IMG/VR virus record: IMGVR_UViG_3300020420_000008
Coordinates: 64,001-128,000 of that record
Reading direction: 5' to 3' (one strand)
Source: a virus
DNA: 64,000 nucleotides
The position numbers were made by a program, and so were the translations under genes. The notes below the pieces were generated by a model. The model saw nothing but the letters and a program-made list of their open reading frames with translations. It was not told the DNA's origin and searched no databases. Below are positions 561 through 61,368 of this stretch, piece by piece. Numbering within the stretch: the first letter of the stretch is position 1; each line of letters begins with the position of its first letter.

Positions 561-2324
561 ATGTCTGCTAACACATATTTAAATATAACCGAAGTTGATT
601 TTGCTGATATCAAATCTAATTTAAAAACATATTTACAATCTCAAACACAGTTTAACGACTATGATTTTGACGGTAGTAATATGTCCGTTTTGTTAGATGT
701 ATTATCATACAACACACACTACAATGCATTTTATACCAATATGCTTGCAAATGAAATGTTTCTTGATACAGCACAACAGCGTGACAGCGTGGTATCTAGA
801 GCAAAAGAACTAGGTTATATCACACGTTCTGCAAGAGGCGCAAGTGCAAATGTCACAATCACTTTTACAGGCGTATCAAACGCAATATCAGAATTTGCAC
901 TACCAAAGAATACAACATTTACAACAAGCATAAACAATAGAACATTTACATTCGTTACACCTGAAACAAACATAATAAAAAATATATCAAATACATTTTC
1001 AAAAGCAATAACGATAACAGAAGGAACACCAGTCACACAAGAGTTTACAGTAAGTGATGCATCGCCTGTTAAGTATGTTATACCGAATGAGAATGTTGAT
1101 ACACGAAGTATTCGGGTGGCAGTTAAAGAGTCTTCAACCTCTTCTGCAAATACTATTTACACACAAGCAACAAACATACGTGATGTGAATAACCAATCGG
1201 CTGTTTACTACTTACAAGAGACACATGATAAACAATATGAAATATTATTTGGCACTGGTTCTCTAGGAAAACCTGTAGTGAATGGAAACATAATACAAGT
1301 AGAATATAGGGTATGTCATGGTATACAGACAAACGGCGCTAATACTTTCTCTATTGATAATTTATCAGTTACTCCTAGTTACACAAGCACTAATCTCGCA
1401 GTAAATTCAGTAGCGAGAGGAGGAGTAGAAATAGAAAGTGTTGATAGTATAAAGTTTAACGCACCAAGAAATTACAAGATTCAAAATCGTGCAGTTGTTG
1501 CAAAAGACTTTGAAAGAATAATATTAAATGAGAACACTAATTTATCATCAGTCGTAGCATTTGGTGGTGAAGAAGCAGAACCTGCCGTTCATGGTAAAGT
1601 TTACATTGCTATAAAACCTCAAGGTGAGTTAATACCTACAGCAACACTAAAAGATGAGATAAAGAACTCTATTAAAACTAGAACAATGTTAGGTATTGAT
1701 CCTCTAATTATAGATCCAACATATCTATATGTGATACCCACTATCACAACTTACTACGACACACTCAAAGCAAATATAGGTACTTCAGCAATACAAACAC
1801 TTGTACGTGATTCTATATCTAATTATTCAACAAATAGTTTAGAACAGTTTGGTAAAAAACTACGATACTCTAGATTTGTACGTAATTTAGATAATACAAA
1901 TGACGCAGTATTGAATAATGAAGCTGAGTTTCAGATGCAAAAAAGATTTGTACCTAGTAGAACAACAGCAACGCTTGTAGACTTGGAGTTTCATAATACT
2001 ATTGAGAAAAACTCGGTAACATCTACGACATTTACTTTTAATGATTTTATCGCACAGTTAGATGATGACGGTTTAGGTAATATTAGAATTTTTAGATTCA
2101 ATGATCAGAAAGAACAAGTGTTTATCGATGCTACAGCTGGTACAATAAATTACATAACAGGTAAAATATCATTGAATAAATTTGTTGTGTCAGCTTTTGA
2201 TGGTATAGAAGTAAAAGTAAATGCTAGTCCTGTAAATAAAGATATCGTGCCTCTAAGAGAACAGATTATAATTATATCTTCCGCCGATGCAGTTATTAAT
2301 ACACAAGCAGAGGTTACTAATTAA
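561..2324 (+). CDS. gp6: Baseplate wedge subunit gp6
   Basis: DFADIKSNLK...FNDYDFDGSNMSVLLDVLSYNTHYNAFY...NEMFLDTA; QNRAVVAKDF; GKVYIAIKP. Confidence 0.95.
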   Translation: MSANTYLNITEVDFADIKSNLKTYLQSQTQFNDYDFDGSNMSVLLDVLSYNTHYNAFYTNMLANEMFLDTAQQRDSVVSRAKELGYITRSARGASANVTITFTGVSNAISEFALPKNTTFTTSINNRTFTFVTPETNIIKNISNTFSKAITITEGTPVTQEFTVSDASPVKYVIPNENVDTRSIRVAVKESSTSSANTIYTQATNIRDVNNQSAVYYLQETHDKQYEILFGTGSLGKPVVNGNIIQVEYRVCHGIQTNGANTFSIDNLSVTPSYTSTNLAVNSVARGGVEIESVDSIKFNAPRNYKIQNRAVVAKDFERIILNENTNLSSVVAFGGEEAEPAVHGKVYIAIKPQGELIPTATLKDEIKNSIKTRTMLGIDPLIIDPTYLYVIPTITTYYDTLKANIGTSAIQTLVRDSISNYSTNSLEQFGKKLRYSRFVRNLDNTNDAVLNNEAEFQMQKRFVPSRTTATLVDLEFHNTIEKNSVTSTTFTFNDFIAQLDDDGLGNIRIFRFNDQKEQVFIDATAGTINYITGKISLNKFVVSAFDGIEVKVNASPVNKDIVPLREQIIIISSADAVINTQAEVTN

Positions 2325-5143
2325 TGGCACTTGATGCAAAACTATCAACATTAGTAGAAAATCAGTTTCCTGCTTTTTATAAAGAAGAAGGTCCTAAATT
2401 TCTTGCTTTCATTAAAGCTTATTACCAGTACTTAGAAACAACTGGTAAACAACAAGATATTCAGAGAAACTTAAAAAACTACAAAGATATTGATACTACA
2501 TTAGACGAGTATATACAATACTTTCGTTCAGAGTTGATGCCTGAAATACCTGATGACGCTCTTGCGGATAAGAGATTGCTTGCCAAACGTATTAAAGACT
2601 TATATACAACAAAAGGTACAATCGATTCGTATAAGTTATTATTTAAAATACTTTATGATGAAGATGTTGAAATAAATTTTCCTGCGGATCAAATGCTTAA
2701 AGTATCTGATGGTGATTTTAGAATTGACAGATACTTGGTTACTCATCATGATCCTAGAGCGTATACTCTCATAGGAAAAACAATAAAAGGAACTGATAGT
2801 CAAGCTGAAGGCTTAGTAGAAGACGTAAAAAGACTTGTAGCTAAAAACAGAGATGTTGATCAAATTCTTTTGTCGAATGTAAAAGGTTCTTTTAATCATT
2901 TAGAAGCAATACAATTAAAAGGTGTACCAAATAGTTATGCACCAATTGTTGAGTGTGGTATACGTAGAGTTACAGTTGCAACAGGTGGTGGTGAATATAG
3001 AAAAGGTGATATCGTAGATATTATATCTTCTAAAACAGGTGCATTTGCCAAAGCAGTTGTAACAGATACTACAAATTTACAAAGTAAAGTTAACTTCAAT
3101 CTCATAGATGGTGGTTCAGGTTACGTAACAAGTGAAGAAGATCAAGGCACAATATTAGAGTATGTTGGTGGAGATGGAACAGCACCTGCCAGTTTTAAAA
3201 TATTTGCTGGTGATTTGACTGATACTTTTGCACTTAGTTTATGTGTAAATAAATTTGCTTCAAACACTATTTTTGGTTCTACTGCACCTAGAGTCAACTA
3301 CAGAGATGGTAGTTTCGGCATTATGGATTCACATGCAAATACTTTGTTATCTAGTCCTGATTTTGGGTTTAGAGAATCTAATGAAACTTTGACAGAAGGA
3401 ACAAATTTTAGAACAAACGCAAATGCTGTTTTAATTATAGCCAACACTTCTGATCCAGGTGTTGTAGTTGGTGATAGTTTATTTGGAGTAACTTCTTCAG
3501 CAAACGCAATAGTAAAAGCTATACGAAGAACATATGACACAACATTAGATAATGTTATTCTTGCAGTTGATACTTACAAAAATTTTCAAGCCAATGAAAA
3601 GGTTAATAAAGGAACAGATGAGGGTACTACAATAGGTACTGTCAAAGCAACAGGCGGTTTCTTTGCAAATACAATAGGTTATCATGTTATTCAAGTAGCA
3701 AACACTGATGGTGGTGGAGGAGTAACACAAGGCGATGAACTTGTAGGAATTAAATCAGGTGCTTTCGGTGTTGTTAAAAAAGTATTAGACATTACAGCTA
3801 GTAATCAATATGATCATGATGGTGATAGTACTCCTGATAGAAAAATTATTACTATGCAAGTAACATCAAATACTACATCAAACACAACAAGTCAATTCGA
3901 TGCTGGAGCCATGAAAGCATTTATAGAAAAAGAAGGTATTAGAAAAGTTGATAGTTCAGTTATCGTAGGAAACAATGTGAGTCAATCTGCTAATACATTA
4001 ATAGAAAATATTCATACTAAATTATCTGATTCGTTGTTATTTGTCAACAATACAGTTGGTACAATTGCTAGATTATCTAATAGATTAGGTGGACAGAACT
4101 TTACAGTGGCACCTAAAGTTGTAGTAGAGCATAGGAATGTTGCCGCCTTAGGTATCGGCGAAGCTTATCTTACTGTTCAATATGACGATATAAATTTTGC
4201 TACAGGCAATTCAAATATAACAGCACTTGATACTAATGACAGATTAGAACAAGCAACAACTGGTGCTAAAGGTAATATTATGAATGTTGGACAAACAATT
4301 CAACATGCCAATACAACTTATCAAACTGTTCTTAGATTATGGCAAGATGATTTGCAAAGAGAACCTGGAAATATTAATTGGGCTAATGATGCTATTGTAA
4401 CTACAAAACATTTTGATGATGCAAGTCGAAGCTCAGTAAAAGGAACAGGAACAATTAAAATAGTAGGCGTACAAGATGAAGGTGTATTAGGTGAAAACGC
4501 AAATATCACAGCCGATGTTGGTGCAAATGGCTCTATAAAAACTGCTAGAGTTATAGACTCTGGTTTCTCATACAAACCAAAAGAAACAATACTTTTTTCT
4601 TCTTCAGGTAGAACAAATGCCATTCAAGCAACAGGCACAATTACTATAGATGGTATAGCAAACGCTGAAGGTTATTATGCGTCTACAAGAGGACACGTAT
4701 CATCATCTAGAGGTTTTATACAAGATAGTAATTTTTACCAAGAGTTTTCATATGAAATTGCCGCCTCTATAGCACTAACAAGATATAGAGATGTTGCTTT
4801 GAGATTGATACATCCAGCTGGACAAAAGTTTTTCGGAAAATTTAAAGTTTCGACAAACGCTATGAGTCAATCAGTATCTACAAGTTTAATAAGAACAAGA
4901 AAAGTTGCAACAGGCACAATAGCCATCAATAACAATGCAAATACGATAACAGGAACTGGTACACAATTAACAACAGAATTTGCAAACGGACAATCAATAA
5001 TAATAGGTCCAATTAGCAATGTCTTTTATCAAGCACGACTAAATATAGTCAACAGTGCAACTAGTGCCAATCTCGCTGTGAATTGGACACATGGTAATAT
5101 AACAGGAGCAAATGCTCATTATTTTTCAGGAACGGTATCATAA
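2324..5143 (+). CDS. gp7: Baseplate wedge initiator, gp7-like
   Basis: N-term QFPAFYKEE..FIKAYYQYLE..IKDLYTTKGTIDSYKLLFKILY; C-term IQDSNFYQEFSYEI..HPAG; sits between gp6 and gp8; TAATG coupling. Confidence 0.8.
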   Translation: MALDAKLSTLVENQFPAFYKEEGPKFLAFIKAYYQYLETTGKQQDIQRNLKNYKDIDTTLDEYIQYFRSELMPEIPDDALADKRLLAKRIKDLYTTKGTIDSYKLLFKILYDEDVEINFPADQMLKVSDGDFRIDRYLVTHHDPRAYTLIGKTIKGTDSQAEGLVEDVKRLVAKNRDVDQILLSNVKGSFNHLEAIQLKGVPNSYAPIVECGIRRVTVATGGGEYRKGDIVDIISSKTGAFAKAVVTDTTNLQSKVNFNLIDGGSGYVTSEEDQGTILEYVGGDGTAPASFKIFAGDLTDTFALSLCVNKFASNTIFGSTAPRVNYRDGSFGIMDSHANTLLSSPDFGFRESNETLTEGTNFRTNANAVLIIANTSDPGVVVGDSLFGVTSSANAIVKAIRRTYDTTLDNVILAVDTYKNFQANEKVNKGTDEGTTIGTVKATGGFFANTIGYHVIQVANTDGGGGVTQGDELVGIKSGAFGVVKKVLDITASNQYDHDGDSTPDRKIITMQVTSNTTSNTTSQFDAGAMKAFIEKEGIRKVDSSVIVGNNVSQSANTLIENIHTKLSDSLLFVNNTVGTIARLSNRLGGQNFTVAPKVVVEHRNVAALGIGEAYLTVQYDDINFATGNSNITALDTNDRLEQATTGAKGNIMNVGQTIQHANTTYQTVLRLWQDDLQREPGNINWANDAIVTTKHFDDASRSSVKGTGTIKIVGVQDEGVLGENANITADVGANGSIKTARVIDSGFSYKPKETILFSSSGRTNAIQATGTITIDGIANAEGYYASTRGHVSSSRGFIQDSNFYQEFSYEIAASIALTRYRDVALRLIHPAGQKFFGKFKVSTNAMSQSVSTSLIRTRKVATGTIAINNNANTITGTGTQLTTEFANGQSIIIGPISNVFYQARLNIVNSATSANLAVNWTHGNITGANAHYFSGTVS

Positions 5144-6903
5144 TGACTTCTTATGCTAGTAAAGAAATGAACATCATGGGTGCAAAAGCTTTTGTAGACT
5201 CTGTAAATGAGTCAGACGGAAGAAGCACAAAAAATTCTACAATACTTTATGCTGTTCTAGGTAAAAGTACACATTGGCCCAACGAGCCCAATGCACCTAC
5301 AGCTACAGAGACAATAAAAGATAAACATTACACTATCTGGAAAGATGCCATAGGAGCTAAGAAAATAAACCCGTCAGATGTAAGTCATGTTGTTCCTAGA
5401 CATGATTGGGCTACAGGTAGAGTTTATCCTATGTACAAGCACACAAATACTAACTTATACTTATCCGACTTCTACATATTAACAGATCAAAATAATGTGT
5501 ATAAATGTTTGTATAATAATAAAGGTGGGCAGTCAACTGTGAAGCCAGCTGGTTTCTCAACAACACCTTTTACTACATCAGATGGTTATACTTGGAAGTA
5601 TATGTACACTATCAGTTTAGGACTAGCAAGTAAATTCTTGACAGCATCACATATGCCAGTTCAAACTCTCTCAGAGAGTGATGGTAGTGCAGAGCAAACT
5701 AATCAACTTGCAGTTCAAAATGCATCAGTAAACGGCGCCATTCAGATTATAGAAACAAATGATGTAGGTTCAGGTTATGGTATGTTAAATAGTACCGCTG
5801 TTATAGGTGCTACATCAACTACGGTTCAGTTAGCACAAGGTAATCCTTCTTCAGTAGATAATCATTATAACGGCGACTCAGTTTATATTCAGTCAGGCAC
5901 TGGACTAGGACAACTTAGAAGAATTGTAAATTATGATGGTTCTACAAGGACTCTTACGACAAATACAGGCTTTACAACAACACCTGATACAACTTCTACT
6001 GTAATTGTTTCACCAACAGTAAATATAATAGGCGATGGTGTAGGTGCTTTAGCTTATTCACTAGTAAATACAAATGGTAATATATCGAATGTAAATGTAA
6101 TAGCAACTGGTTCTAAGTATACACATGCCAAAGCTTTTATTACATCAAATACAGTTACAGGAACTGGAGCAACTGCCAATGTAATCATATCACCCATAGG
6201 TGGACATGGTAAAGATGCAATAAGAGAATTAGGTGGTAATAAAATCTGTCTAAATGCACAATTTAAAGGTAGTCAAGGTGTTTCAGCAACAGGTAAAGGA
6301 TTTGTTCCTGCGAATACAGAATTTAGAACAGTAAGCATTCTCAAAGATCCTATTCTTAAAGTTGATTCTAATAACGCTATTATGACAGAAGCAATAGCAA
6401 ATACATCTAATAGTGCAGACACATTAAGATTAACAACAAGATTAAATATTTCATATCAACAATTAATAAATACTATACCACAGAATCAGTTTCAGATAGA
6501 TGATGAGATAACAAATGAGAGAATGAGATTGAATGCTGAAAATGGTACTATTGGATTCATTACTGAACTAAATGCGTCAGCAAGAGAAAATGCTTCTGTA
6601 GCACAAGCATCAAATGGTGCAAACGGAACAATAGTTTTTATTAAAGATGATGAGTTATTAAGCGATACATCATTCTTTAATATCTATCTAAATAATGTAG
6701 ATAGTTATGGTAATCATGTCGCTTTTACGAAAAACGACATTTTGTTAAAAAGAGGAAGTTCTACAAAAGTTGCAACTGTATCAGATATATCAGGTCCAGA
6801 GGCAAATACATATTCAGGTGAATTTATACATGTAGAAAACTTTCAGAAAGTTGATAGAGCAGTAGATCAAACTGAAGATATAAAAGTTATACTAGATTTT
6901 TAA
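5143..6903 (+). CDS. gp8: Baseplate wedge subunit gp8 (extended)
   Basis: VVPRHDW..FYILTDQNNVYKCLYN..DGYTWKYMYTI; C-term YSGEFIHVEN..R..DQTEDIKVILDF. Confidence 0.9.
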   Translation: MTSYASKEMNIMGAKAFVDSVNESDGRSTKNSTILYAVLGKSTHWPNEPNAPTATETIKDKHYTIWKDAIGAKKINPSDVSHVVPRHDWATGRVYPMYKHTNTNLYLSDFYILTDQNNVYKCLYNNKGGQSTVKPAGFSTTPFTTSDGYTWKYMYTISLGLASKFLTASHMPVQTLSESDGSAEQTNQLAVQNASVNGAIQIIETNDVGSGYGMLNSTAVIGATSTTVQLAQGNPSSVDNHYNGDSVYIQSGTGLGQLRRIVNYDGSTRTLTTNTGFTTTPDTTSTVIVSPTVNIIGDGVGALAYSLVNTNGNISNVNVIATGSKYTHAKAFITSNTVTGTGATANVIISPIGGHGKDAIRELGGNKICLNAQFKGSQGVSATGKGFVPANTEFRTVSILKDPILKVDSNNAIMTEAIANTSNSADTLRLTTRLNISYQQLINTIPQNQFQIDDEITNERMRLNAENGTIGFITELNASARENASVAQASNGANGTIVFIKDDELLSDTSFFNIYLNNVDSYGNHVAFTKNDILLKRGSSTKVATVSDISGPEANTYSGEFIHVENFQKVDRAVDQTEDIKVILDF

Positions 6904-6914
6904 AGGTAAAGTAG

Positions 6915-13124: not shown

Positions 13125-16100
13125 ATGACTGTAACCATAGCAAATACAAATCTTGTAGATAGCTTCAATACTTGGAGATTGAATACTAATTTAGCCGCCA
13201 CGACTATTAGTAACAATGTTGTAACAGTGAGTAAGACTGGTGCAGTAAGAGGTGGAACAACAAAAGGTGATGGACATATAAAAGGTATTTTTAGTGCTAA
13301 TGATTTAAGATCAAGTGCCATACGAGGTGGTAACACTACAAATCAAAGTGCTATAACTCTTCACTCTAATACAACAATAGAAGCCAGAACTTTTACAATA
13401 AATGCAAATACAGAATTTACAGGTAATGTAAATTTTACCACAACGACTACTGATAGAATCATATTAGGAGATATATCACGTATTCGTGTTACAGGTGGTA
13501 ATTCAGGAGACTTTTTACGAAAGACAGGTGTAGATCAAATAACAGCCGCCCAAATGGGACTTAGACAATTAAGCGATTTATCTTCTAACTCAGCACATAT
13601 AATTTTATCTTCTTCTAATACTGCTTTCTCAGAAGAACTTAATACACCTGATTTAAGATTTTCAGCAGGTACAGATGGACAAGATGTATTCCGAGTTTAT
13701 GGTGACGGCGACTCTACAGGAGGTAATTCAGATTTACTAATACAGCTTGTAAGTGCAGATGGAGACAGTAATTTAAAAATTCAAACAAATGCTAATAATA
13801 CAGTACATACTTTCGGCGCAGATGGTAACTTTCAATCTACTGGTAGACTTACAACTGTAGGTATAACAACATCAGGAACAATATTACCATCAGGAGCATC
13901 AGTAAACCTAGGTTCAGGTTCAGCTAAATTTTTAGATGGTAATTTTTCTGGCACAGTAACTACTGATAAGTTAAATATCAGTACAACAGCAGGAGATGGT
14001 GTTAGTTCAGATTTATTACCTGCAACTCATAATGCAAGAGATTTAGGTAATACAAACTATCAGTGGAGAAATATTTTCTCATCAGGAACTTCCACACTAA
14101 ACAACGTAACGATAGGCGGTACTCTAGGTACTACAGGAGATTTAACGGCAGTAAATCTGATAGCGACAGGTGATGTAGATTTAGGTAACGCAACAACAGA
14201 TACAATCACAGTAACAGGACAATTTGATTCAGATTTGATACCTTCTACAGATAACGCTAGAGATTTAGGTTCTTCTTCAAAAGAATGGAAAGATTTGTAT
14301 ATAGATGGTGTAGCAAATATAGACGAACTCTCAGTTGCAACAGGAAGTGGACAAGGTGTTTCTACTTCACTTATACCGAAGACAGATGGCACACACAATC
14401 TAGGTTCAACTAATAGAGAATGGCAAAACCTATTCATAGATGGTACAGCACATATAGACACTTTAGATGTTGATGAAAATGCTACATTCGGTGGTACAAT
14501 AACAGCTACAAGTGGTACAACAACATTATCAACTGGTGCTATTAGTGTAGCTAACATAACAACATTGAACACAACAGGCTTAGCAAGTCTAGACGGTGGT
14601 ATAGATGTTGATGGTGTTTTTACAGTAGCAGACTCTTCAGGTAATATGGCAACTACAGGTACAGCAACTGTAGGAGGTTTAACAAGTCTGAATGGTGGTA
14701 TAGCAGTAGACACAAATAAGTTCACTGTTGCAGATACATCAGGTAATGTAGCTACCGCTGGTTCTCTTACAGTTGCAGGTACAACTACGTTAAATGGTGA
14801 TGTCACACTAGGTGATAGTAGCACTGACACAGTAACTATAAATGGTACAATTGCCGGCACTTCAACATTTAATAACTTAGCTACGACAGGTGCTACTGAT
14901 ATAGGTGATAATGTCAATGACACACTAACAGTTACTGCTTCAGTAGACTCAAATTTTATTCCTACAGGTACTGTAAATTTAGGTTCTAACTCAAGTAGAT
15001 GGACAAATGGTTATATAACTAATTTAGTAGGAAGAAATATTACTCTAGGTGCCAGTGGCGATGCTTCTGGAACAAACTCTCTCACAATATTCGGTGACAT
15101 TACAATAGATGGTGATATCAATCAATCTACAGGACAAACAATCGCCGCCACGGCAGGCGATTTTACTAACGCTACAGTTTCTACATTACTCAATGTACAA
15201 GGAAACGCAGATTTAGGTAATGCCGCCTCAGACACGATAACTTTCGCAGGTACTGTAGACTCAGATATTATTCCTAACGGAGCAAGTAGAGATTTAGGTA
15301 GTACAAGTGCTAGATGGGACGTAGGATATTTTAACGACATAAACGTAGCAGATGATTTTGCTCTCACAGATGACTTGACAGTTGGTGGAGACGCCGGCGT
15401 AACGGGAACGGTATCAGCTGGAGCATTAAATGTGTCTGGTGCAACAAACCTTGCTGGTGATGTTGACTTTGATGGTGCGATAACAAGAGATGGCGGTACT
15501 GTTCTATTCGATACAAATGGTGTACTTAATCAAGCATCGATTGCTACAGGTGCTATAGCTTCAGCAAAACTTGCAAGTGTAGTTACAGGTGCTAGTGTAG
15601 GTTCAGCATCAGCCGTACCAGTTATCACATTCAATAGTAAAGGACAAATAACGGCGGCAACAACTGCAACAGTAGCAGGTGTTACGGGTTTTGCAGTTGG
15701 TAACGCCGCCGACGGAAAAAAATTCACGATTACAACCGCAGATGGTTCTACATTTGATGCGACAGTAGGTGCAGGTTCTATAGGAACAAATGAGATGTCC
15801 ACAATCTCAGGACTTACCGCAACAACATATGGTTCTGCAACTCAAGTACCTGTCTTAACAGTAAATGCTAAAGGACGTGTTACAGCCGCCTCTCAAGTAG
15901 CTGTAGCTGGTATATCAAGCGTTGCTTATACAAGTGCAAACAATAATGTAAGAGTTAGCACAGGTGATGGTAAAACACACGACTTGACAGTTGCACCAGC
16001 AACTGATAGCGTAAGAGGTGTTGCATCATTTGATAGTGGAGATTTTGATGTAAGTTCAGGTGCCGTAACACTCAAGAATGCTACAACAGGTGCCGTACTC

Positions 16101-18020: not shown

Positions 18021-19109
18021 ATGGCACTACAATCTTCAGGCGCAATATCAATCAAAAATGTACAAGACGAGTTTTCGCCTACAGGCGGAACAGGAGGCGC
18101 AGGAATAAAATTTAGTGAATACTATAGAAATGGTAGTATTATTGCCAGTGATGCAGTAGGAGGAAGTATACCTAATTCGGGTGCAATATCACTAAGTCAA
18201 TTTAGAGGTGCTATGGATTACTCAGAAGTAACAATCAGTGGTAATCATAACAATTCAAATCTTAGATCCTTAGCAAATGCCGCCGGTTTTAACGGAACTA
18301 ATCCAGTTCGTATAACAATAAATGCTGGATATTATTTAGCAACTACAACAAGCAATTATGGAATGAGAACAGGTTCTTTTCCTAGTGAATTAAAAGTAGA
18401 TAATTATGCTTACATTATGGGTAAAGGAGGAACAGGCGGACAGGCTCCTAGTGCAGGAGGTTCAGGTGGAGGACATGCTCTTCTTCTTGAAACAAATGTA
18501 ACACGATGGAATAACCTTAGTAACGGAACTTGTTCCGCCGGTGGAGGTGGAGGAGGTTCAGGTAGATATAACGATAGCGGTTCTGTTAGATCCGCCGCCG
18601 GTGGAGGTGGAGGTGCTGGAGGTGGTGATGGCGGACGTGCCGCCGGTGGTGGATTTGTTGGTGGTGGTGCAGGTAGTAATTCTGGAGGAGGCTCAGGTAG
18701 TACTGGTAGTATTGCACACTCGGCGGCAGGAAGTGCTGAAGGTAGTAATATTGCAGGACGTGGTGGTACAGCTGGTGGAGGAGGAGGCGGCTGGGGCCGA
18801 GATCAAAATAAAGGTAATACAACGAGAACGACAGCAGGCTCCGGTGGCGGAGGTGGAAGAGCATTTCCTGGAACTGGTGGCGGTGGTGGTAGTAATCCTG
18901 GCTTTGCAAATCCTGGAGGTGGTGGAGGAAGTTCTACTGGTGGAGGCGGGGGTGGCTCCACTCATACCGGCGGTGGTGGCGGTGGTTGGGGTTCTTCTGG
19001 TGGTGGCGCCGGTGGAGGCGGCGGTGGTGGCGGTGGTAGAGCCGTACATCGAAACGGAAGAAGTATTTCACACAACAACAATAGATTTCATGGATCAATA
19101 GCAGGATAA
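18021..19109 (+). CDS. Polyglycine tail-fibre tip adhesin, T2/S16 gp38-like
   Basis: IMGKGGTGG..GGHAL, AGGGGGG and many glycine runs separated by variable loops; C-term GGRAV..FHGSIAG; starts immediately after the S74-bearing fibre. Confidence 0.75.
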   Translation: MALQSSGAISIKNVQDEFSPTGGTGGAGIKFSEYYRNGSIIASDAVGGSIPNSGAISLSQFRGAMDYSEVTISGNHNNSNLRSLANAAGFNGTNPVRITINAGYYLATTTSNYGMRTGSFPSELKVDNYAYIMGKGGTGGQAPSAGGSGGGHALLLETNVTRWNNLSNGTCSAGGGGGGSGRYNDSGSVRSAAGGGGGAGGGDGGRAAGGGFVGGGAGSNSGGGSGSTGSIAHSAAGSAEGSNIAGRGGTAGGGGGGWGRDQNKGNTTRTTAGSGGGGGRAFPGTGGGGGSNPGFANPGGGGGSSTGGGGGGSTHTGGGGGGWGSSGGGAGGGGGGGGGRAVHRNGRSISHNNNRFHGSIAG

Positions 19110-19114
19110 TTATT

Positions 19115-20011
19115 ATGTATATGAACGCAGATATGATGAAGAAAACACTTAATTTATGTGATGAAGCTCACAAAGGATATGAAATAGGACTTAAAATATT
19201 ACAGGATAAAGGATATCTATCTTTATATAATGAACATGGAGAAAGTCATGCAGGTTTGATGACAATCCCTGAGTGGTTGCTTGTATATAGAACATTTGTT
19301 AATTCATATTGGCCCGAAGATAAAGTAAAAGAATTAGAAGATGCATACTCTCAAGAAGATAATGAAAATGATGTAACACCGAGTTTTAAAAATGATACAG
19401 CATTATTAAAACAATTGTCAGATGTTTATGTTACTACTACTAAAGATAGAAATCCAGATTTAACAGAAGAAGAAATAAAATCTAAAGATAAACAATGGTG
19501 GTTTGACGAGAATCAAGGTCCATATGGTTATTCATTTTGGATGATTGATAAAACAAAACCAGCACCTATTGAAGCCGTAATATATTGGAATAATCATACT
19601 GTAACAAATGATTGGTATATAACAATAGATGGTTATGAAACACAAGGTACAAAAGAAGTATTAAATAACAAGACTGTAGAAGAAATAAAAGCTAGATTAG
19701 ATGAATTAGTTACAGAGAGAGTAGGAGAACCATTAGCTTCTCAAGATGTAGAACCTGTTGACTTTGATGAATATGGTGGAGTAATAATGAATAAAAGTAT
19801 GAAAGACGCTGATGATGAAGATACTTTTATGGTTACAGATCATCTAGGCAATTCAGTTGCGGTAGATGGTATGGAGAAAGCTATAGAAACTGCTACAGCA
19901 TATAGAAAGGCTAAAGCAGAGTTTCAATTATCTTTTTTCATATGGAGAAAAATAACTGAACCAGGTGGTTATTTTGCTTGGAGAGAAGAGAATATAGCAG
20001 ATTACTTATAG
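19115..20011 (+). CDS. Hypothetical acidic protein
   Basis: 298-aa ORF filling the gap between neighbours; no motif recognised. Confidence 0.7.
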   Translation: MYMNADMMKKTLNLCDEAHKGYEIGLKILQDKGYLSLYNEHGESHAGLMTIPEWLLVYRTFVNSYWPEDKVKELEDAYSQEDNENDVTPSFKNDTALLKQLSDVYVTTTKDRNPDLTEEEIKSKDKQWWFDENQGPYGYSFWMIDKTKPAPIEAVIYWNNHTVTNDWYITIDGYETQGTKEVLNNKTVEEIKARLDELVTERVGEPLASQDVEPVDFDEYGGVIMNKSMKDADDEDTFMVTDHLGNSVAVDGMEKAIETATAYRKAKAEFQLSFFIWRKITEPGGYFAWREENIADYL

Positions 20012-20403: not shown

Positions 20404-23400
20404 ATGGCGGACTTTGATGTTACGCTAGGTTCAAATAAAGGTAACTTAAATGTAGAGTTCGATAAACCTACGCAAGATTTAACTTTAAAGAATCAGGCGG
20501 CTACTAAGACAAATATAAGAGACTTCAACGATGTTGATAGCAACACTTTTCAAGGTGCACCGGCGGCGAATGGTGAGTCTATACTTGTCTATAATGCCAA
20601 TACAAAACTCTTTCAGTTACGCTCAGGTAATATAAGACTTAGAGAAAATCCAGCACATTATTCAGGATTAAAGTATACAGCCGAAGGTGCTTTTATACCT
20701 GACACAAACAATGCTTACGATTTAGGTTCTCCAGGAAGAAGATTTAGAACACTATTCTTATCTGGCGAAACAATTAAGTTAGGTAATTTAAATCTTTCTG
20801 ATTCAGGTGATACAATCACTATCACAAAAGATACTATTATCGATGGTGTTATTCAGAATGTTGTTATTGGTACTCTCAGCACACAAACTCTAAACACAGA
20901 TAATTTTGAAGCCGCCAATCTAGTAGCGAATAGTACATTTACTGTAGAAACACCAAGAGCCTTTTTTAATCAAGGTATGACTGTAAAGTCGGGTGTCATA
21001 CAAGCGAGTAATACACATCTTCATGCAAATAATATATCGATAAGAAATAATCTAACTGTCAACGGTGCTATCATACTCAGAGGTAGCACAATGAATCTTG
21101 GTGATGGCGGTGATGTCATAAATCTTGGTGCTACAGTTAATACTAGTATTTTACCTACAAGTTCTAATTTGCTTGATATTGGTGCGCCTGCACAGAAATA
21201 CGCAAATGTATTTACAACAAGCGTAAAAGGTTTACAAACACCAACAGAAGGTACAGATGGTGCTAATAAAGCATATGTAGACGATAGTATAGGCAATATA
21301 AGCACAACGGCAGATGGCACAACACTAGGTACTGGTTTCAATACACTGAATGATGGCGCATCAGTAGGATTTCAAGCTAGTGATAATTTAATATCCACTC
21401 TTGATAATATCAATGAGACAGCTTTTAATATTTTTAAAAATACATATGTTCGTGATGTAACTTTTGCTTCAGATAAAACATCAGGTGGTGCTGGCACGAC
21501 TGTTACTCTTACATTGACTGTAACAGGAAATGCAACTAGATTTGATATTAATTGGGGCGATGGTTCTACTGATACTGACGTAACTGATACAACACCGAGT
21601 CATACATATACATCAAATGCAGGTTCTCCATATACAGTTGTAGTTACTGCTAGAAATCATAATGCTATTTCAGGTTCTAAGGGAAGTTCAGCATCTTTTA
21701 CAAGAACAAATTTCATAACAATATTCTTAGCTGATCCAGTTCCTTCATTTACTATTCATGATGCATCGACAGATGGTAACTTAATAACAACAACATCTAC
21801 AGGTGTACCGGTATATTTAAATAATACAACGACTAATATACCAAATACAGCTATTACAGCAACTTTCTCCGTAAATTGGGGAGACGGCACTGCTACTGAA
21901 AATGTTACAGGAAAAACAGAAAATGGTGGACCTCAAGGTGGTAGGTTAGCACACACATATACAAATGCATCAGGTACAGGAAGACATACAGTAACACTAA
22001 ACGTAGTTAGTTTTGATGCTGGTGATCCTTCTGTTCTGCCTCTCAGTACAACTTCATTGATAAAAGTATTTGATGCTTCTATAGCATCACCTAATCATCT
22101 AGGTACAAAGACAATATCGCTCAACACTTCTTCTGTTGGTACGAATCCTAAAGTTGCATCAGGTTTTACAACAAACGGTGTTTCAGGAACAAACGCTGGT
22201 GATAACGTAACTCGCTATACTACATCAGGTGCAATTGCAACTGCCGCCATGGGCTCATTTTTCTTTCAAGCAGATGGTGGTACTCTAAGTGCATTTGTAG
22301 ATGGTAGTGCAGACGGACAAAAAGCTATTACTAATGCAAATGATGAAGGAACTTTTACAAGTCTCATCATTGACGATGAGCAAGATTATAACAGCTTTGA
22401 TGCAGATGGCAATACTGTAGCAGTAAATAGTAGAATATATGCTCCAGGATTATTCGAAGGTTATAAAGCACGAATATCAAAGAGTAATTTCTCAACAGGC
22501 TTACACTCTCTTCAATTACAATCAACTGCTGGTAATACTAACACATTGAAGTTTATCAGAGATGATGTAACAATAACACCTACAACAAGTGTAGGTTCTG
22601 CAACACTTACACAGGCGTCAGCTGGTACATTATCTTATATATCAGGTATACCTTACTATACAAATGATGCAACACTCACTCTTGCTGGTGTAACTGTACA
22701 AAGTTTTACAGGACAAACTTTTCAAGACACAACATCACCTGTAGTAGTAGAAAACTCTACTGACTTAGAAGGCACATCAGGTAATGCAATAGGAACAAAT
22801 AACTTTACATACGCAAATATAGATGGTAGTACAACTATGTTAGAAAGTGGTACACCAAAAGTAAATATAGGAACAGCATCACCTTACGCTCTAGGTAATC
22901 TTACAGTAAATGTAAATGGTGGCGGTAAACGTGTAGAAAGATTACAAGTAAAAGCAAAGAACTCAAACGGAACTGGTAGTGCTGTAATATTAGCATCGCC
23001 TGCAATACAAGCATATAATGGTAGTAAATCGTTTGATGAGACTGCGATACCTGTATCAGACTCACTAGGTGCTGGCTTTGATAATGATGCCAAACGTATT
23101 CATAGTTTGACTGGTGGTGCAGTAGCATTTAGTAATTCTACTGATTACTTTGCAGATAACGCTTTTACAGGTGCCCAAACAGTAGCAGGCACAACTGAAG
23201 CGATAGTGCGATACGATACACTAAAGCACTTCACAACTGATTTGTCAAGTGGTTATTTACCAGCTGGACCTAATTTAAATACAGGACGTTCAGGTGCCCA
23301 ACATTTTGTTTTTGCTTTCAAGAGAACAACTGTTTCACGTTTTAGTATTACGCTTACGGGTAAAGTATCAGGACTTTTTGTAGCTGTTCCTAATACTGCA

Positions 23401-41350: not shown

Positions 41351-42862
41351 ATGCCAACGAATTTTTATTTTGATAATTTTGCTCACACAGGACAGCAAAA
41401 TTTAATAGAAGATTTAATTATCGAATCTATCAAAATATATGGTTACGATAATTTTTACATACCTAGAACAATCGTAAAAGAAGATGATTTGTTTGGTGAA
41501 GATGTATTATCTAAATTCGATAATGCTTTGCCATTAGAAATGTATATTAAAAACGTAGAAGGATTTGATGGTGAAGGTGAGTTTCTTTCAAGATTTAATG
41601 TGGAAGTGAGAGATCAGATAACTTTTTCTATAGCACAAAGAAGATGGCAAGAAGAAGTATCTATAGACGATAGAAAGATAGATGAACAAGGAGAAAGAAT
41701 AAATCGTCCAGTAGAAGGTGATTTGATATTCTTTCCTCTTACAGGACAACTATATGAAATAAAATATGTCGATAAACAACCTATCTTTTATCAGATGGGA
41801 CAGCTACAGATGTATGATTTGCGTTGCGAACTATTTGAGTTTAGCCACGAAAGAATTGACACTGGTGTCAAAGCGATTGATGACTTGGCTGCCAGACATA
41901 CTATCAATGTTCTTAACTTTCAAATACTTCTTGAAGCATCTAAAGAACGTGCATTGGGTACTACTGTACTAACAAATGATAAAGTTACAGGTGTATCGTT
42001 AAGCAATCTTGGTGATTATGATGCTAGTCCTACAGTAACATTTGGTGCACCGCCTGCCGCCCAAGTTGCTATAGCTACATCAACAATAAGTTCAGGAGCT
42101 GTTACAGGAGCTACAGTAAATTCAAATTTACAAGGTTCTGGTTATATAGCCAATGTACCTGTTACTTTTAGCAGTCCAGAAACAACGCAAAGAATACAAG
42201 CTACAGCTACAGCTACAATTTCAGGAGGTTCAGTAAGTGCAGTTACATTAACAGAGAATGGTGGTTTTTATACTTCTGCTCCACCAGTTTCAGTATCAGC
42301 ATCACCTTCAGGTGATGATGCGGTTCTTACATCAACTATTGCAGGTAATCAGCTTTTACAAATTTTAATTCAAAGCGGTGGTTCAGGATACACTTCTGCT
42401 CCTACAATTACGATAGGTACACCTAATAATGCTATACATTTTGCCGCCTCTGGTATAGCAGTTCCTGATGCAAAAGGTAATATAGGTAATATAATAATAA
42501 CAGGTGGCGGTAAATATTATGAAAATGCACCTAGCGTTACTATAGGTAATCCTCCAGATTCTATTAGAGCCACAGGTACAGCACAGATATCAGGTACACA
42601 AGTATCAGGCATAACTATTACAAATCAAGGTAGAGGTTATGTAAACGTAAATGGCACACCTTTCGTTCCCTCTGTAACTTTCTCAGTAGAGACATTTACA
42701 GGTGGCATTAGACTTGAAGATGGTGATGGATTGTTATTAGAAGCTACAGCAAATACAACTCATGAAAACTCTACAGCTAACAATGTTTTCTTTGAAACTA
42801 ACAAATCAGGATTTATAGATTTCTCCGAACTGAATCCTTTTAGTGAAGGAACTGATTGGTAA
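41351..42862 (+). CDS. gp14: Neck protein gp14 with a long repeat insertion
   Basis: QQNLIEDLIIESIKIYG..YIPR..RPVEGDLIFFP..YDLRCELFEFSHE; C-term IDFSELNPF; start moved to the ATG at 41351, after the gp13 stop. Confidence 0.92.
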   Translation: MPTNFYFDNFAHTGQQNLIEDLIIESIKIYGYDNFYIPRTIVKEDDLFGEDVLSKFDNALPLEMYIKNVEGFDGEGEFLSRFNVEVRDQITFSIAQRRWQEEVSIDDRKIDEQGERINRPVEGDLIFFPLTGQLYEIKYVDKQPIFYQMGQLQMYDLRCELFEFSHERIDTGVKAIDDLAARHTINVLNFQILLEASKERALGTTVLTNDKVTGVSLSNLGDYDASPTVTFGAPPAAQVAIATSTISSGAVTGATVNSNLQGSGYIANVPVTFSSPETTQRIQATATATISGGSVSAVTLTENGGFYTSAPPVSVSASPSGDDAVLTSTIAGNQLLQILIQSGGSGYTSAPTITIGTPNNAIHFAASGIAVPDAKGNIGNIIITGGGKYYENAPSVTIGNPPDSIRATGTAQISGTQVSGITITNQGRGYVNVNGTPFVPSVTFSVETFTGGIRLEDGDGLLLEATANTTHENSTANNVFFETNKSGFIDFSELNPFSEGTDW

Positions 42863-55198: not shown

Positions 55199-55204
55199 GA
55201 TAGT

Positions 55205-56117: not shown

Positions 56118-56180
56118 AGAAGAAGTAGTAACTAAACTGAAATTGAGAATAGCTAAATTTAAAAAAGATCATGCTGAAAT

Positions 56181-57731: not shown

Positions 57732-58035
57732 CAAAATAACTGTTATTGATCCTTTGAAGATGGAGTTTGTTACTGATATGGGTATGCCTGCTATGCATTC
57801 AACTTTTTGGATACCTTTGTCGAAAGAAGAAATTAGCATTGACATAGACATGTCACATGTGATAATATGTACGGAAGCACCTACAGATTTATCGCAGTTT
57901 TATACTAACTCTATGATTAAAATAAAACAAGGCGATACTGAAGAAAGTAAAAAACTTATTGAGGAGAAAGTTAAGAATGCTATTAAACAATTCACAAAGC
58001 ATACATCTAATACAAGTAGTTGGACAATGCACTGA
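57664..58035 (+). CDS. Hypothetical protein upstream of gp55
   Basis: IIKLTSGETILA start; overlaps the uvsW 3' end and is TGATG-coupled to gp55. Confidence 0.7.
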   Translation: MIVIIKLTSGETILARQFYRSNDKITVIDPLKMEFVTDMGMPAMHSTFWIPLSKEEISIDIDMSHVIICTEAPTDLSQFYTNSMIKIKQGDTEESKKLIEEKVKNAIKQFTKHTSNTSSWTMH

Positions 58036-58598
58036 TGGTTAAAGCTAAAAGACAAAAACATAATTATGTTGACAATAAAAAATTTTTAGCTGAGATGATA
58101 ACATATAGAAGATCAGTTACACAAGCAACTGACTTTGGTGTAGAACGTCCTAGAGTACCTTTTTATATTGGTGATTGTATCATGAAAATTGCTACACACT
58201 TATCATACAAACCTAATTTTATAAACTACACATTTAGAGAAGAGATGATATCAGATGGCGTAGAAAATTGCTTACAGTATATTGATAACTTTGATCCTGA
58301 AAAGTCTAAGAATCCTTTCGCATATTTTACACAGATTATATATTTTGCATTTCTAAGACGAATACAGAAAGAAAAGAAATATCTATATACAAAATATAAA
58401 GCATCAGAAAACACAAATTTGTTTGGAGAAACTTCAGAAAACTCTGGAGAGAACGGCAGAAATTATAATGATAAAATTAAATATAATGAGTGGAGTGAAG
58501 AATATATGAATGATTTTATAGAAAACTTTGAGGAAAATAAAAGAAAGAAAAAGAGAAAAATTATCGCACCTTTAGATAAGTTTATGGCTGAGCAATGA
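58035..58598 (+). CDS. gp55: Late-transcription sigma factor gp55
   Basis: NYVDNKKFL, IATHLSYKPNFINYT, EMISDGVENC, NPFAYFTQIIYFAFLRRIQKEKK; ATG at 58035. Confidence 0.97.
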   Translation: MVKAKRQKHNYVDNKKFLAEMITYRRSVTQATDFGVERPRVPFYIGDCIMKIATHLSYKPNFINYTFREEMISDGVENCLQYIDNFDPEKSKNPFAYFTQIIYFAFLRRIQKEKKYLYTKYKASENTNLFGETSENSGENGRNYNDKIKYNEWSEEYMNDFIENFEENKRKKKRKIIAPLDKFMAEQ

Positions 58599-59656
58599 GA
58601 ATAGCTATCATTAATGACACTCACTGGGGTGCTAGAAATGATTCACAACAATTCTTAGATTATTTCAAAAAGTTTATAGATAATATATTTCTACCTTACA
58701 TAGATGAAAACAAAATAGATACTGTCATACATCTTGGTGATATCGTAGATAGACGTAAGTACATAAACTATGTCACACTTAGACATCTAAAAGATAATCT
58801 GATACAGCCGTTGTTAGATAGAAAAGTGAACCTAAATGTTATCATTGGTAATCATGATGTACCCTACAAGAATACTAATGAAATAAACTCTATGGCAGAA
58901 TTGTTCGATAAGCATAGTGTAAAATATTATTCAGAACCTGAAGTCGTAACATTTGATGGTACTGATATACTACTTGTGCCTTGGATAAACACATCTAATT
59001 ATGCGAACTCTATGGATATGATAAAGAATACAAAAGCACAGATTTGTATGGGACATCTAGAGATAGCAGGTTGTACTCTCATGAGAGGTATAACTTCCGA
59101 TCATGGTATTAGTATAGATACTTTCAAACATTTTGACACAGTACTTTCAGGACACTTTCATACAAAATCTACAAGTAATAATGTGCATTATCTTGGTACA
59201 CAATATGAACTGACTTGGACAGATTACCAAGATCCTAAAGGCTTTCATGTGTTTGACACAAACACTAGAGAGATAGAGATGGTACGAAATCCATATCGTA
59301 TGTTTCATAAAGTATTCTATGATGATGTAAAGAATACTTCAGAAGAGATACTACACAAAGATTACTCCATGTTTGGTAACACATATGTCAAAGTGATTAC
59401 ACAAGAAAAAGAAAATCCATATACATTTGATTTGTTCATGGACAAACTCTATCAAGAAAATCCTATCGCAGTACAGATTGTAGATGATCACTTGAACTTA
59501 CATTTAGAAGGTGATGACGATTTAATCAATCAAACTCAAGATACTGTGACTATATTATCTAACTACATTGAGAACATGGAGACTAATGTACCAAAGAAAA
59601 GACTCGACAACTTAATGAGAACCTTGTATAATGAAGCTTTATATATGGAAGTGTAA
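58595..59656 (+). CDS. gp47: Recombination nuclease gp47 (Mre11/SbcD-like)
   Basis: DTHWG, HLGD..DRRK, GNHD, GHLE, SGHFH. Confidence 0.96.
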   Translation: MRIAIINDTHWGARNDSQQFLDYFKKFIDNIFLPYIDENKIDTVIHLGDIVDRRKYINYVTLRHLKDNLIQPLLDRKVNLNVIIGNHDVPYKNTNEINSMAELFDKHSVKYYSEPEVVTFDGTDILLVPWINTSNYANSMDMIKNTKAQICMGHLEIAGCTLMRGITSDHGISIDTFKHFDTVLSGHFHTKSTSNNVHYLGTQYELTWTDYQDPKGFHVFDTNTREIEMVRNPYRMFHKVFYDDVKNTSEEILHKDYSMFGNTYVKVITQEKENPYTFDLFMDKLYQENPIAVQIVDDHLNLHLEGDDDLINQTQDTVTILSNYIENMETNVPKKRLDNLMRTLYNEALYMEV

Positions 59657-61368
59657 TGATATACTTTGAAAATATTCGATGGAAGAACTTTCTATCAACA
59701 GGTAATCAATGGACAAACATACCTTTAAACACACACTCAAATACAATTATAGTAGGTGAGAATGGTGCTGGTAAGTCAACGATACTTGATGCACTATGTT
59801 TTGTACTGTTTAACAAACCTTTTCGTAAAATAAGTAAATCGCAAATGTTAAACTCAATCAACATGGGCGGACTTGAAGTAGAAGTAAAATTTAGAATTGG
59901 TAAGATGAACTATACTATACGTAGAGGTATGAAACCAAATATATTTGAAATACATCAAGACAGCACTTTACTCAATCAACCAGGTTCAGCTAGAGATTAT
60001 CAGAAGCAACTAGAAGAAACTATACTTAAACTAAACTTTAAATCTTTCACACAGATAGTTGTTCTTGGTGCATCTACATTTATACCTTTCATGCAACTGT
60101 CTGTGTCGCATAGACGAGAGGTGATAGAAGATTTATTAGATATTAGTATATTCTCTAATATGGGTAAACTATTGAAAGATAGAGTTGCAGAGAACAAAGA
60201 ATCTATACGTGACTCAGACTACCAGATAGATTTACTTAAAACAAAAATAGATACACAACAATCCTACATTCGAAAACTAAAAGAGCAGAATGATGATACA
60301 ATAGCTACATTTCAAAACTTGATAGATGGTGCCCAAGATGAAATCAATGACTTAACACAACTATCAAATGGTATAGTTGAGAAGATAGAGTTTCTATCAG
60401 AAGATGTTGCACCTCTCAAAGTCAATGAAAATAAGAAAGCTAAACTTATCGACATTCACAATAGAATGCAAAGAAAGATAAAGAATGCGGAGAAGAGAAT
60501 AGCTTTCTTCAATGATAATGCGGAGTGTCCTACTTGTTCTCAAGATATCAGTGATGATATTCGTGATAGTAAAATATCAGAAACAAATGCTACCATAGTA
60601 GAAGTAAAAGCTGGTGAAGGCGAGTTGCAAAAACAATTATCTGAACTCGATGGTAAAATAAATGATATGTTATCAGCACAACAAAGATTGGTAGGATTAC
60701 AAACAGAGATTGCTGAAAACAATTCTAGTATAAAATCTCTGAATAAATCTATACAGAAAAACCAGAAAGAAATAGAGAAGATAAAAGATACTGGTGTCGA
60801 TAGTGCTGAAACATATGAGAAACTTAAACTTTATGAAGACGATAAGAGACTCAACGAACAGAGAAAAGAAGAGTTAGTTAATGATAGAGAACTATTCAGT
60901 GTAGCAGTAAATATGCTCAAAGATGATGGTATCAAAAAGAAAATCATCAAACAGTATGTGCCAGTTATGAACAAACTTATCAACAAATATTTGGCTGCCT
61001 TAGATTTCTTTGTACTGTTCGAACTAGATGAACAGTTCAATGAAGTTATTAAGAGTAGACATAGAGATGAGTTTTCGTATGCATCATTCTCGGAAGGTGA
61101 GAAAATGAGAATAGACTTAGCATTACTATTCACATGGCGTTCTATAGCAAAACTCAAAAACTCTATCAATACAAATCTACTAATACTTGATGAAGTATTC
61201 GATGCATCTCTAGATAATAATGGTTGTGATGAATTTCTAAAACTATTGAACCAGCTAGATAACCAGACAAATGTATTTGTAATATCTCATAAAGGTGATA
61301 TACTATCTGAGAAGTTTAAGAATCAGATACGATTTGAGAAATATAAAAACTTTAGTAGGGTGGCATAA
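59656..61368 (+). CDS. gp46: Recombination ATPase gp46 (Rad50/SbcC-like)
   Basis: GENGAGKST, CPTC zinc hook, FSEGEKMRIDL, LILDEVFD, ISH. Confidence 0.97.
   Translation: MIYFENIRWKNFLSTGNQWTNIPLNTHSNTIIVGENGAGKSTILDALCFVLFNKPFRKISKSQMLNSINMGGLEVEVKFRIGKMNYTIRRGMKPNIFEIHQDSTLLNQPGSARDYQKQLEETILKLNFKSFTQIVVLGASTFIPFMQLSVSHRREVIEDLLDISIFSNMGKLLKDRVAENKESIRDSDYQIDLLKTKIDTQQSYIRKLKEQNDDTIATFQNLIDGAQDEINDLTQLSNGIVEKIEFLSEDVAPLKVNENKKAKLIDIHNRMQRKIKNAEKRIAFFNDNAECPTCSQDISDDIRDSKISETNATIVEVKAGEGELQKQLSELDGKINDMLSAQQRLVGLQTEIAENNSSIKSLNKSIQKNQKEIEKIKDTGVDSAETYEKLKLYEDDKRLNEQRKEELVNDRELFSVAVNMLKDDGIKKKIIKQYVPVMNKLINKYLAALDFFVLFELDEQFNEVIKSRHRDEFSYASFSEGEKMRIDLALLFTWRSIAKLKNSINTNLLILDEVFDASLDNNGCDEFLKLLNQLDNQTNVFVISHKGDILSEKFKNQIRFEKYKNFSRVA

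Follow-up and report, generated by a model that had tools for sequence, protein, structure and literature searches.

Mom of phage Mu is the single GNAT known to defeat many restriction enzymes by marking a DNA base within a short motif. The multispecific C5 methylases of the Bacillus phages SPR, phi3T, and rho11s also act broadly, one enzyme guarding GGCC, GCNGC, GAGCTC, and CCGG, and they recognize each full site through separate target-recognition domains. The subject of this report is a loss of restriction-type sites that depends on the bases flanking them, observed in a 64,000-nucleotide stretch of phage DNA (the window; bases 64001–128000 of the 146,609-bp linear IMG/VR record IMGVR_UViG_3300020420_000008), together with a DruA-like gene in that window that is a candidate writer of a proposed protective base mark.

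Many T4-like phages are devoid of a hydroxymethyl-cytosine system, and the means by which their DNA, apparently unmodified, withstands restriction have posed an open question from 2010, if not earlier (PMC2993671). The DpdA systems insert 7-deazaguanine at GA and GGC in phage CAjan (PMC7544227), a precedent that the initial annotation of the window had correctly given for preQ0, and at GA in phage iggy (PMC10484667). In KVP40-like phages with DpdA2, well under 1% of the nucleotides are modified (PMC10516641). DUF4338, the domain of the type I Druantia protein DruA, has been assigned to the GNAT acetyltransferases (PMC10853773), and DruA-like proteins in cyanophages have been noted solely as structural look-alikes (Phold preprint).

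The phage under study is an ocean T4-like phage of 35.8% GC in which one strand holds nearly all genes; its record is rated 76% complete by CheckV. The phage shares 67% identity in the major capsid protein with Pelagibacter phage Mosig, and marine-type genes are present (PhoH, PstS, ThyX, class II ribonucleotide reductase, and cobS/cobT-like).

Flank-dependent loss of restriction sites

Site counts were compared with a null model in which genes were called and synonymous codons were shuffled inside each gene to give 200 genomes. This null preserves all proteins and per-gene codon usage, and it is conservative because the codon usage that it preserves has already been shaped by the purge. Site counts written below as x/y are observed over expected copies under this null. 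A GCGC or GGCC site is termed unflanked when it reads HGCGCD or HGGCCD, and flanked when its outer G or C is repeated. The relevant sites of the window are as follows.

837–60336 (span, unstranded): 39 GCGC sites, all GGCGC or GCGCC, inside the genome-wide purge
5275–5280 (unstranded): GGCC survivor in TGGCCC (Trp-Pro), with a like form at 19311 and 37750
18794–18799 (unstranded): GGCC survivor in GGGCCG, G-flanked
20554–20561 (unstranded): GGTGCACC, one of the two GWGCWC sites, with both flanks
42044–42051 (unstranded): GGTGCACC, the other GWGCWC site, with both flanks
2133–53980 (span, unstranded): 17 CAGCTG sites, each CCAGCTG and/or CAGCTGG, the C-initial counterpart of the rule
15709–15715 (unstranded): CCGACGG, the only CGWCG site, flanked on both sides

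The initial annotation had proposed that GCGC, GGCC, and GWGCWC persist only where they overlap a GG or CC step, and its manual counts were reproduced: all 39 GCGC copies are GGCGC or GCGCC, the four GGCC sites (5276, 18795, 19311, and 37750) all read GGGCC or GGCCC, and GWGCWC/GTGCAC occurs solely as GGTGCACC at 20554 and 42044. Under the null, the window should hold 15.5 ± 3.6 unflanked GCGC (shuffle minimum 6), spread over several frames and both strands, yet it holds 0. Unflanked GGCC is likewise absent (0 vs 28.5 expected), and CGCG has 0 copies. GWGCWC occurs 2 times against 23.1 expected, and both copies are doubly flanked, a form for which 2.0 are expected.

The same pattern holds for the whole genome. 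Unflanked GCGC is absent (0/36.5) and flanked GCGC is at expectation (54/51); the corresponding values for GGCC are 0/56 and 7/17. GTGCAC missing either flank is found 0/12.5 times, GGTGCACC 5/2.9 times, and other GWGCWC 0/34 times, while CGCG stands at 0/37. Sites that themselves contain GG or CC were said to be common, and they are indeed roughly as frequent as expected (CCGG 59/77, CCWGG 85/98, and GGWCC 52/58). As the split of observed over expected counts by flank was run against the codon-shuffle null, flank dependence survives control for amino acids and codon usage, and flank-dependent site loss is confirmed as far beyond chance.

The traces of this loss are visible in codon choice. 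Three of the four GGCC survivors are TGG CCC, and all four Trp-Pro pairs use CCC, though 4% of Pro codons are CCC. For Gly-Ala-Gln, the 13 triplets read GGT GCC CAA (7) or GGC GCW CAA (6), spellings that avoid GWGCWC, as noted initially. Ala-Ala pairs are GCC GCC in 76 of 128 cases, though GCC accounts for 11% of Ala codons; as a product of these rewritten pairs, GCSGC survives as GGCGGC/GCCGCC in 126 copies against 14 expected.

Approximately 20 restriction-type words are purged from the whole genome. These include CGCG, GCGC, GGCC, GACC, GCNGC, GWGCWC, CAGCTG, and CGWCG, as well as GAATTC (0/37.5), AGATCT (0 vs ~50 sites), AACGTT, CTGCAG, CTTAAG, GCTAGC, CACGTG, CTCGAG, and others. Depletion is strand-symmetric, such that HGACC and GGTCD pooled amount to 1/290, against 52/58 for GGACC. 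GCWGC has 11 copies, all of them GGCWGCC, with other forms at 0/109. For the G-initial purged palindromes taken together, the counts are 3/241 unflanked, 175/114 with one flank, and 23/12 with both.

The rescue has a definite polarity. It is general at G-initial sites, partial at C-initial sites, and nil at A/T-initial sites: for AACGTT and AGATCT, repeating the outer base brings no rescue (0/38 and 0/11). At C-initial CAGCTG the mirror flank rescues (unflanked 0/21, one flank 18/13, both 7/1.0), and CGWCG is present in the genome solely as CCGWCGG, while CGCG, CTGCAG, and CTTAAG have no rescued copies. A 5′ C flank, equally GC-rich, fails to rescue G-initial sites. The internal GG of GGCC or GGTC gives no protection, whereas an extra outer G does. 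Words of the form CC..GG are retained, with CCGG at 51/60 in the Pelagibacter phage HTVC008M as well as at the near-expected count given above, and CCGG is missing (0 of ~24) in all three podoviruses of the same host.

A longer motif was rejected because the surviving sites show no extra sequence context, and a rule specific for the GC dinucleotide or for GGC was rejected because GGACC and GGTGCACC hold no GGC. One dinucleotide rule is thus the simplest account. The polarity fits a mark on a G preceded by G, paired with a C followed by C. On this sequence evidence, polarity would fix the base pair alone and leaves G and C equal as carriers. Two further words, GGATG (CATCC/GGATG, 29/140) and GAGCT (36/167), are partially purged from the whole genome; their survivors follow other contexts (TGGATG; GGAGCT, ~45% kept) that the GG/CC rule leaves unexplained.

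Distribution of the rule among phages

The shuffle test was repeated on whole genomes of other phages, and several T4-like phages obey the rule on their own sets of sites. HTVC008M has GATC at 0/197 unflanked and 83 flanked copies, GANTC at 0/201 vs 43, and GTATAC at 0/23 vs 14. Mosig carries GATC solely as GGATCC (19/6.5), and its GTATAC counts are 0/17 unflanked, 7/8 with one flank, and 3/1.8 with both. In KVP40 the G-initial sites stand at 12/394, 56/160, and 16/15 for no, one, and both flanks. Aeh1 gives 0/100 unflanked and 25/49 with one flank, with CTTAAG in doubly flanked form only (5/4.3). Three metagenomic relatives of the study phage (sheath 79–90% identical) keep the rule for GACC, GCGC, and GCWGC, with GCGC at 0 unflanked vs 17 flanked copies. 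GGCC is not purged at all in these relatives, a variation that is expected if host enzymes vary and the shield is constant.

Other genomes purge sites regardless of flank. RB43 has 0/137 unflanked, 2/63 with one flank, and 0/7 with both on exactly those six-cutter sites at which KVP40 and Aeh1 show rescue, and the T4-like phages Syn9, S-PM2, and DLP6 do not obey the rule. RB49 shows no rescue, but this is a weak test in that the majority of its informative purged sites either begin with GG or are GAATTC, a word without rescue in the genomes where it is testable; its non-GG sites are just GAATTC, GCATGC (0/6), and GCCGGC (0/2). Melnitz is ambiguous (GATC 10/221 unflanked, 10/134 with one flank, 3/9 with both), and four metagenomic genomes, G001, G002, G003, and G004, are uninformative, almost nothing being purged in them.

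The podoviruses HTVC011P and HTVC019P infect the same Pelagibacter (SAR11) strain as HTVC008M. In both, GATC and GANTC are purged whatever the flank: flanked GATC is at 0/36 and 0/34, and one-flank G-initial sites are at 0/57 and 0/60. Since the rule holds in some T4-like phages and in neither of these two podoviruses, the exemption is a property of the phage lineage. RB43, RB49, Syn9, G005 (a DruA-free metagenomic genome considered below), and the same-host podoviruses exclude a general effect of the enzymes, of GG/CC stacking, or of the host. Literature searches found no description of flank-conditional site avoidance.

Two observations of other flank effects were made in this survey. G005, a complete 162-kb T4-like contig, keeps TCGA as TTCGA or TCGAA (16/118 unflanked, 99/175 with one flank, 29/55 with both), a separate flank rule on TT/AA. 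In HTVC008M and RB49 the GGCC pattern is reversed, in that GGGCC/GGCCC is purged (1/16 and 0/38) and unflanked GGCC stays (21/64 and 74/131).

A DruA-like candidate gene and the proposed mark

When the gene content of the rule-obeying study phage, HTVC008M, and Mosig was compared with that of non-obeying relatives, one enzyme-sized family stood out. Its member in the window lies among the following genes.

58595–61368 (+): gp47 (Mre11-like) and gp46 (Rad50-like), conserved anchors just upstream of the DruA-like gene
61368–61898 (+): 176-residue open reading frame (ORF) that immediately precedes the DruA-like gene; weak matches of methyltransferase-like and MADS-like type
62113–63420 (+): 435-residue DruA/DUF4338-family protein with a GNAT acyltransferase fold (Pfam, PADLOC, AF2), the candidate writer
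63462–64000 (+): beginning of a 467-residue ORF, cut by the window edge, that lies downstream of the DruA-like gene and has a weak HNH match at its C terminus

The 435-residue protein matches Pfam PF14236 at 80.5 bits (cut-off 27; 82 bits in a six-frame search) and PADLOC DruA at 72.6 bits. Its AlphaFold (AF2) model has a pLDDT confidence score of 83.7, and the top Foldseek and VIA matches are all GNATs. The best structural match is Mom of phage Mu (8bv8), with a Foldseek probability of 0.99–1.0 and, for 8bv8_B, a VIA Z of 9.9 over 172 residues, compared with 9.4 over ~146 residues for SpeG/AAC(6′). A profile search of solved structures with this protein gave nothing.

Six-frame searches detect PF14236 in five rule-obeying cases, namely the study phage, HTVC008M (in duplicate), Mosig, G006, and the L304 lineage. 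They give no match in Melnitz, Syn9, S-PM2, RB49, RB43, DLP6, or three podoviruses, and none in KVP40 or Aeh1. Presence of the family is thus associated with the rule in five of seven obeying genomes versus none of ten non-obeying ones (Fisher p = 0.003, without phylogeny correction). The test for co-occurrence of the rule with a specific gene across related phages, suggested by the initial annotation, is positive to that extent, with KVP40 and Aeh1 as exceptions.

A prospective test on two complete metagenomic genomes fitted in both cases. G006, which has two DruA copies, is rescued: GTCGAC stands at 0/9 unflanked, 5/5 with one flank, and 3/0.8 with both, and GTGCAC at 0/14, 1/12, and 7/3.9. 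The DruA-free G005 is not rescued, with GTAC at 0/156, 0/154, and 0/15.6. Six more independent DruA-bearing loci, pooled, give 3/137 unflanked, 43/69 with one flank, and 9/10 with both. The PF14236 family has thousands of members in metagenomes.

The DruA-like gene directly follows gp47-gp46 in every lineage examined, and its neighbors here and in six other lineages are gp47, gp46, the 176-residue ORF, the HNH protein, and cobT/cobS-like genes. Inspection of these neighbors found no other dru gene of a druB–E operon, no family search for DruE having been made. The 176-residue ORF matches mad2 (E 5e-4) and MTase_II (E 5e-3) in PADLOC, gave no match in a Pfam scan, and has no homologue in HTVC008M; it is a possible partner of the DruA-like gene or a rival writer. 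In some DruA-bearing phages the DruA-like gene is closely followed by genes for a MazZ-like dATP/dGTP diphosphohydrolase (PF18909) and for an exonuclease of the Rv2179c-like kind, and a second, shorter DruA copy occurs in each of L350, HTVC008M, and G006.

L349:12086-12523; L350:12628-13125 and 18212-19330: PF18909 MazZ-like/Rv2179c-like genes and shorter DruA copy

It is hypothesized that the phage meets many different host restriction enzymes and that their target words have been removed through silent codon choice, a target being tolerated only where another G stands before its outermost G (or, equivalently, another C after its outermost C). The packaged DNA would carry a covalent protective mark on GG/CC steps, which number ~7,800 and would amount to 15% of all G:C pairs. 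Its carrier would be the 3′ G of GpG or the C paired with it, such that the marked end pair blocks cutting, and would work on the outermost pair of the target and, for some enzymes, also just outside it. The writer would come from the phage lineage and would be neither the host, nor DpdA, nor a classical methylase; the most likely candidate is the Mom-like GNAT of the DruA/DUF4338 family at 62113–63420. By analogy with Mu Mom, it may act post-replicatively on the exocyclic amine of C or G.

The purge, the flank rule, its polarity, its limitation to certain phage lineages, and the fold and distribution of the gene are shown by the data above. For the account as a whole, that is, a covalent GG/CC mark made by the phage with the DruA-like GNAT as its most likely writer, a probability of roughly 0.5 seems appropriate from the sequence data. 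Its components differ in strength: the site patterns suggest that the shield is probably a covalent mark, while the assignment of the DruA-like GNAT as its writer is tentative. The proposal of the initial annotation that one GG/CC-context mark explains several unrelated sites is upheld by the multi-site rule and the lineage distribution in the form of a phage-borne shield, and not in its DpdA/guanine form.

Several points weigh against this account. The whole case rests on sequence statistics, and the record is rated as incomplete, which leaves room for further genes. In KVP40 and Aeh1 the rule is obeyed with no match to PF14236, PF00583 GNATs, TGT, or the C5 (PF00145) and N4/N6 (PF01555) methylases, which means that these two have another writer or that DruA does not write the mark. 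The genomes that bear DruA belong for the most part to related marine phages, a relatedness for which the association was not corrected. GATC is without one-flank rescue in the DruA-bearing Mosig, G006, L351, and L293-297, and the DruA-bearing locus L348 purges CCGG. It is also odd that a mark inside GGCC or GGTC should fail to protect while the same mark on an outer G does. Finally, the Mom match is tied with ordinary GNATs, and a shared fold in a predicted model shows no DNA substrate.

The alternatives differ in what they ask of the genome. A DpdA-type guanine transglycosylase swapping G for a preQ0-like base at GG would suit the polarity (G preceded by G), and partial modification at the dinucleotide level that blocks restriction does exist (PMC7544227, PMC10484667). 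However, the six-frame search for TGT (PF01702) turned up nothing with E ≤ 1 in the 146.6-kb record and no match in HTVC008M, Mosig, KVP40, Aeh1, Melnitz, Syn9, RB43, or DLP6, while 14 of 14 control genomes gave a match. FolE and QueC/D/E are absent among ~70 Pfam-scanned proteins, no family-by-family six-frame search having been made for them, and modification at the level of DpdA2 falls far below the ~15% of G demanded by the GG rule. This route, raised initially as a precedent, can hardly be credited. Methylation (5-methylcytosine or N4-methylcytosine) of a C followed by C, by an unrecognized small methylase such as the 176-residue ORF at 61368–61898, draws on a known effect, in that a methylated terminal C blocks or impairs many enzymes (Sau3AI, HinfI, AvaII, and ApaLI), and that ORF has weak methyltransferase-like matches. 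In GGCC, the first C is the position at which methylation protects against HaeIII. A methylase of this kind would modify precisely that C, yet unflanked GGCC is purged (0/56). No match to PF00145, PF01555, or PF02086 (D12) was found in the study-phage record, nor to PF00145 or PF01555 in HTVC008M, KVP40, or Aeh1, and the 176-residue ORF lacks both a Pfam match and an HTVC008M homologue, such that C methylation is unlikely. The same GGCC argument had led the initial annotation to prefer guanine; it is logically sound but presumes a HaeIII-like enzyme facing a methyl-like mark. The genome search for writers that had been suggested thus found no dpdA/TGT, C5, N4/N6, or D12 gene, and did find, in the window itself, the Mom-like GNAT gene, a candidate that the initial annotation had missed.

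Several site-specific methylases whose targets overlap the survivors (GGNCC, and further ones for GGCGC, GGCWGCC, and GGTGCACC), or a host-made mark, would account for the fact that the GACC and GGCC survivors all lie inside GGNCC. At least three further specificities, all beginning with GG, would be needed, and the survivors show no extra context; the same rule acts on different sites in SAR11, Vibrio, and Aeromonas phages, and podoviruses of the same host strain are unprotected, making these options very unlikely. A shield of a non-covalent kind, tolerance for sites that are cut slowly, or selection by flank-reading nucleases would explain more readily why marks inside GGCC fail to protect. 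It would also fit the failure of tblastn, blastp, and small hidden Markov models to find an accessory gene common to all rule-obeying phages; the study phage, KVP40, and Aeh1 share the T4 core only. An enzyme-wide property is nevertheless excluded by the disobeying genomes and same-host podoviruses named above, the 5′ C flank gives G-initial sites no rescue, flanked sites are at or above expectation and not just less depleted, and shielding incoming DNA needs something that travels with it. An explanation free of any covalent mark is hence rather improbable.

Other correlates and genes were noticed. A gp61.1-like protein (T4 gene 61.1), with a conserved ~110-residue N-terminal domain, a Lys-rich tail, and homologues in HTVC008M, KVP40, Aeh1, G001, and RB49, was rejected as a discriminating gene because RB49 also has it (E 1e-9). 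A split gp43 DNA polymerase was rejected as a correlate, being split in the study-phage record only; gp43 is a single ORF of 831–924 residues in HTVC008M, KVP40, Aeh1, RB49, and G001, and the split could be a frameshift, a sequencing error, or real. The sugar-nucleotide set may serve the cell surface or DNA decoration. The zeta-toxin-like kinase has a homologue in HTVC008M. The permuted transfer-messenger RNA (tmRNA) is of alphaproteobacterial type (Rfam RF01849, 89 bits, tag ANDDFAPVDYALAA), which hints at an alphaproteobacterial host.

L002:2252-3079 (genome 21252-22079): gp61.1-like protein
L001:228-2751 (genome 228-1670 and 1663-2751): gp43 DNA polymerase, read as two overlapping ORFs
L001:11582-17265 and L002:14836-18168: sugar-nucleotide set, comprising KdsA-like DAHP_synth_1, a 1274-residue cytidylyltransferase and DUF5824 protein, KpsC/S-like Capsule_synth, a GT1 glycosyltransferase, a DHO_dh-like protein, and a 2OG-Fe(II) oxygenase
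L004:2862-4954 (genome 59862-61954): zeta-toxin-like P-loop kinase and a 409-residue familyless protein, within the baseplate cluster
L003:9770-10460 (genome 47.8-48.5 kb, outside the window): permuted tmRNA region, then tRNA-Gly(ACC) and a manA RNA motif

Comparison with known anti-restriction systems

The flank-conditional purge provides a strong, quantitative genomic footprint of a shield on GG/CC steps and would combine anti-restriction modification of a short motif, Mom-like or DpdA-like, with site avoidance. Applied to uncultured phages, the rule offers a simple test, from sequence, for hidden DNA modification, and its occurrence in the cultured phages HTVC008M, Mosig, KVP40, and Aeh1 makes it directly testable. 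As a speculative extension, DruA/DUF4338 proteins may be DNA base acyltransferases that mark GG/CC, serving as an anti-restriction shield in marine T4-like phages and as a label of self-DNA in Druantia. If true, the shield would span ~15% of the G:C pairs in abundant marine T4-like phages, including HTVC008M and Mosig, and would represent a new base modification and the second Mom-like chemistry in phage biology. It would also provide the first biochemical function for DruA, a component of Druantia from a family with thousands of ocean-virome members.

Palindrome avoidance in virulent phages resembles the present case in that ~20 words are lost synonymously on both strands and the set differs among close relatives. 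In contrast, loss in the study phage depends on the flank, and copies with a repeated outer G or C are at expectation or enriched. The Bacillus phage C5 methylases likewise shield several unrelated sites through one phage factor, whereas the study phage has no C5 match and its protection is set by the flank and not by the site.

The DpdA systems share a partial, dinucleotide-specified base modification that guards overlapping restriction sites. However, no DpdA/TGT match was obtained in the study phage or in complete obeying genomes, and no preQ0-pathway protein among the ~70 proteins scanned, and the motif here is GG followed by any base rather than GA or GGC. DruA of type I Druantia belongs to the same Pfam and PADLOC family as the candidate, while the study-phage gene stands alone in a lytic phage, after gp47-gp46, with no neighboring dru gene.

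Mu Mom resembles the candidate in both proposed action and fold: a phage enzyme modifies a base post-replicatively, within a degenerate motif of very few positions, and blocks many unrelated enzymes, and its GNAT fold is the same as that of the DruA-like protein, of which it is the top structural match in a tie with ordinary GNATs. The two share 8–10% sequence identity, and the DNA activity of the candidate is proposed by analogy. Mom is an adenine N6-methylcarbamoyl transferase acting at (C/G)A(C/G)N(C/T), whereas the footprint here is GG/CC, for which the target would be G or C.

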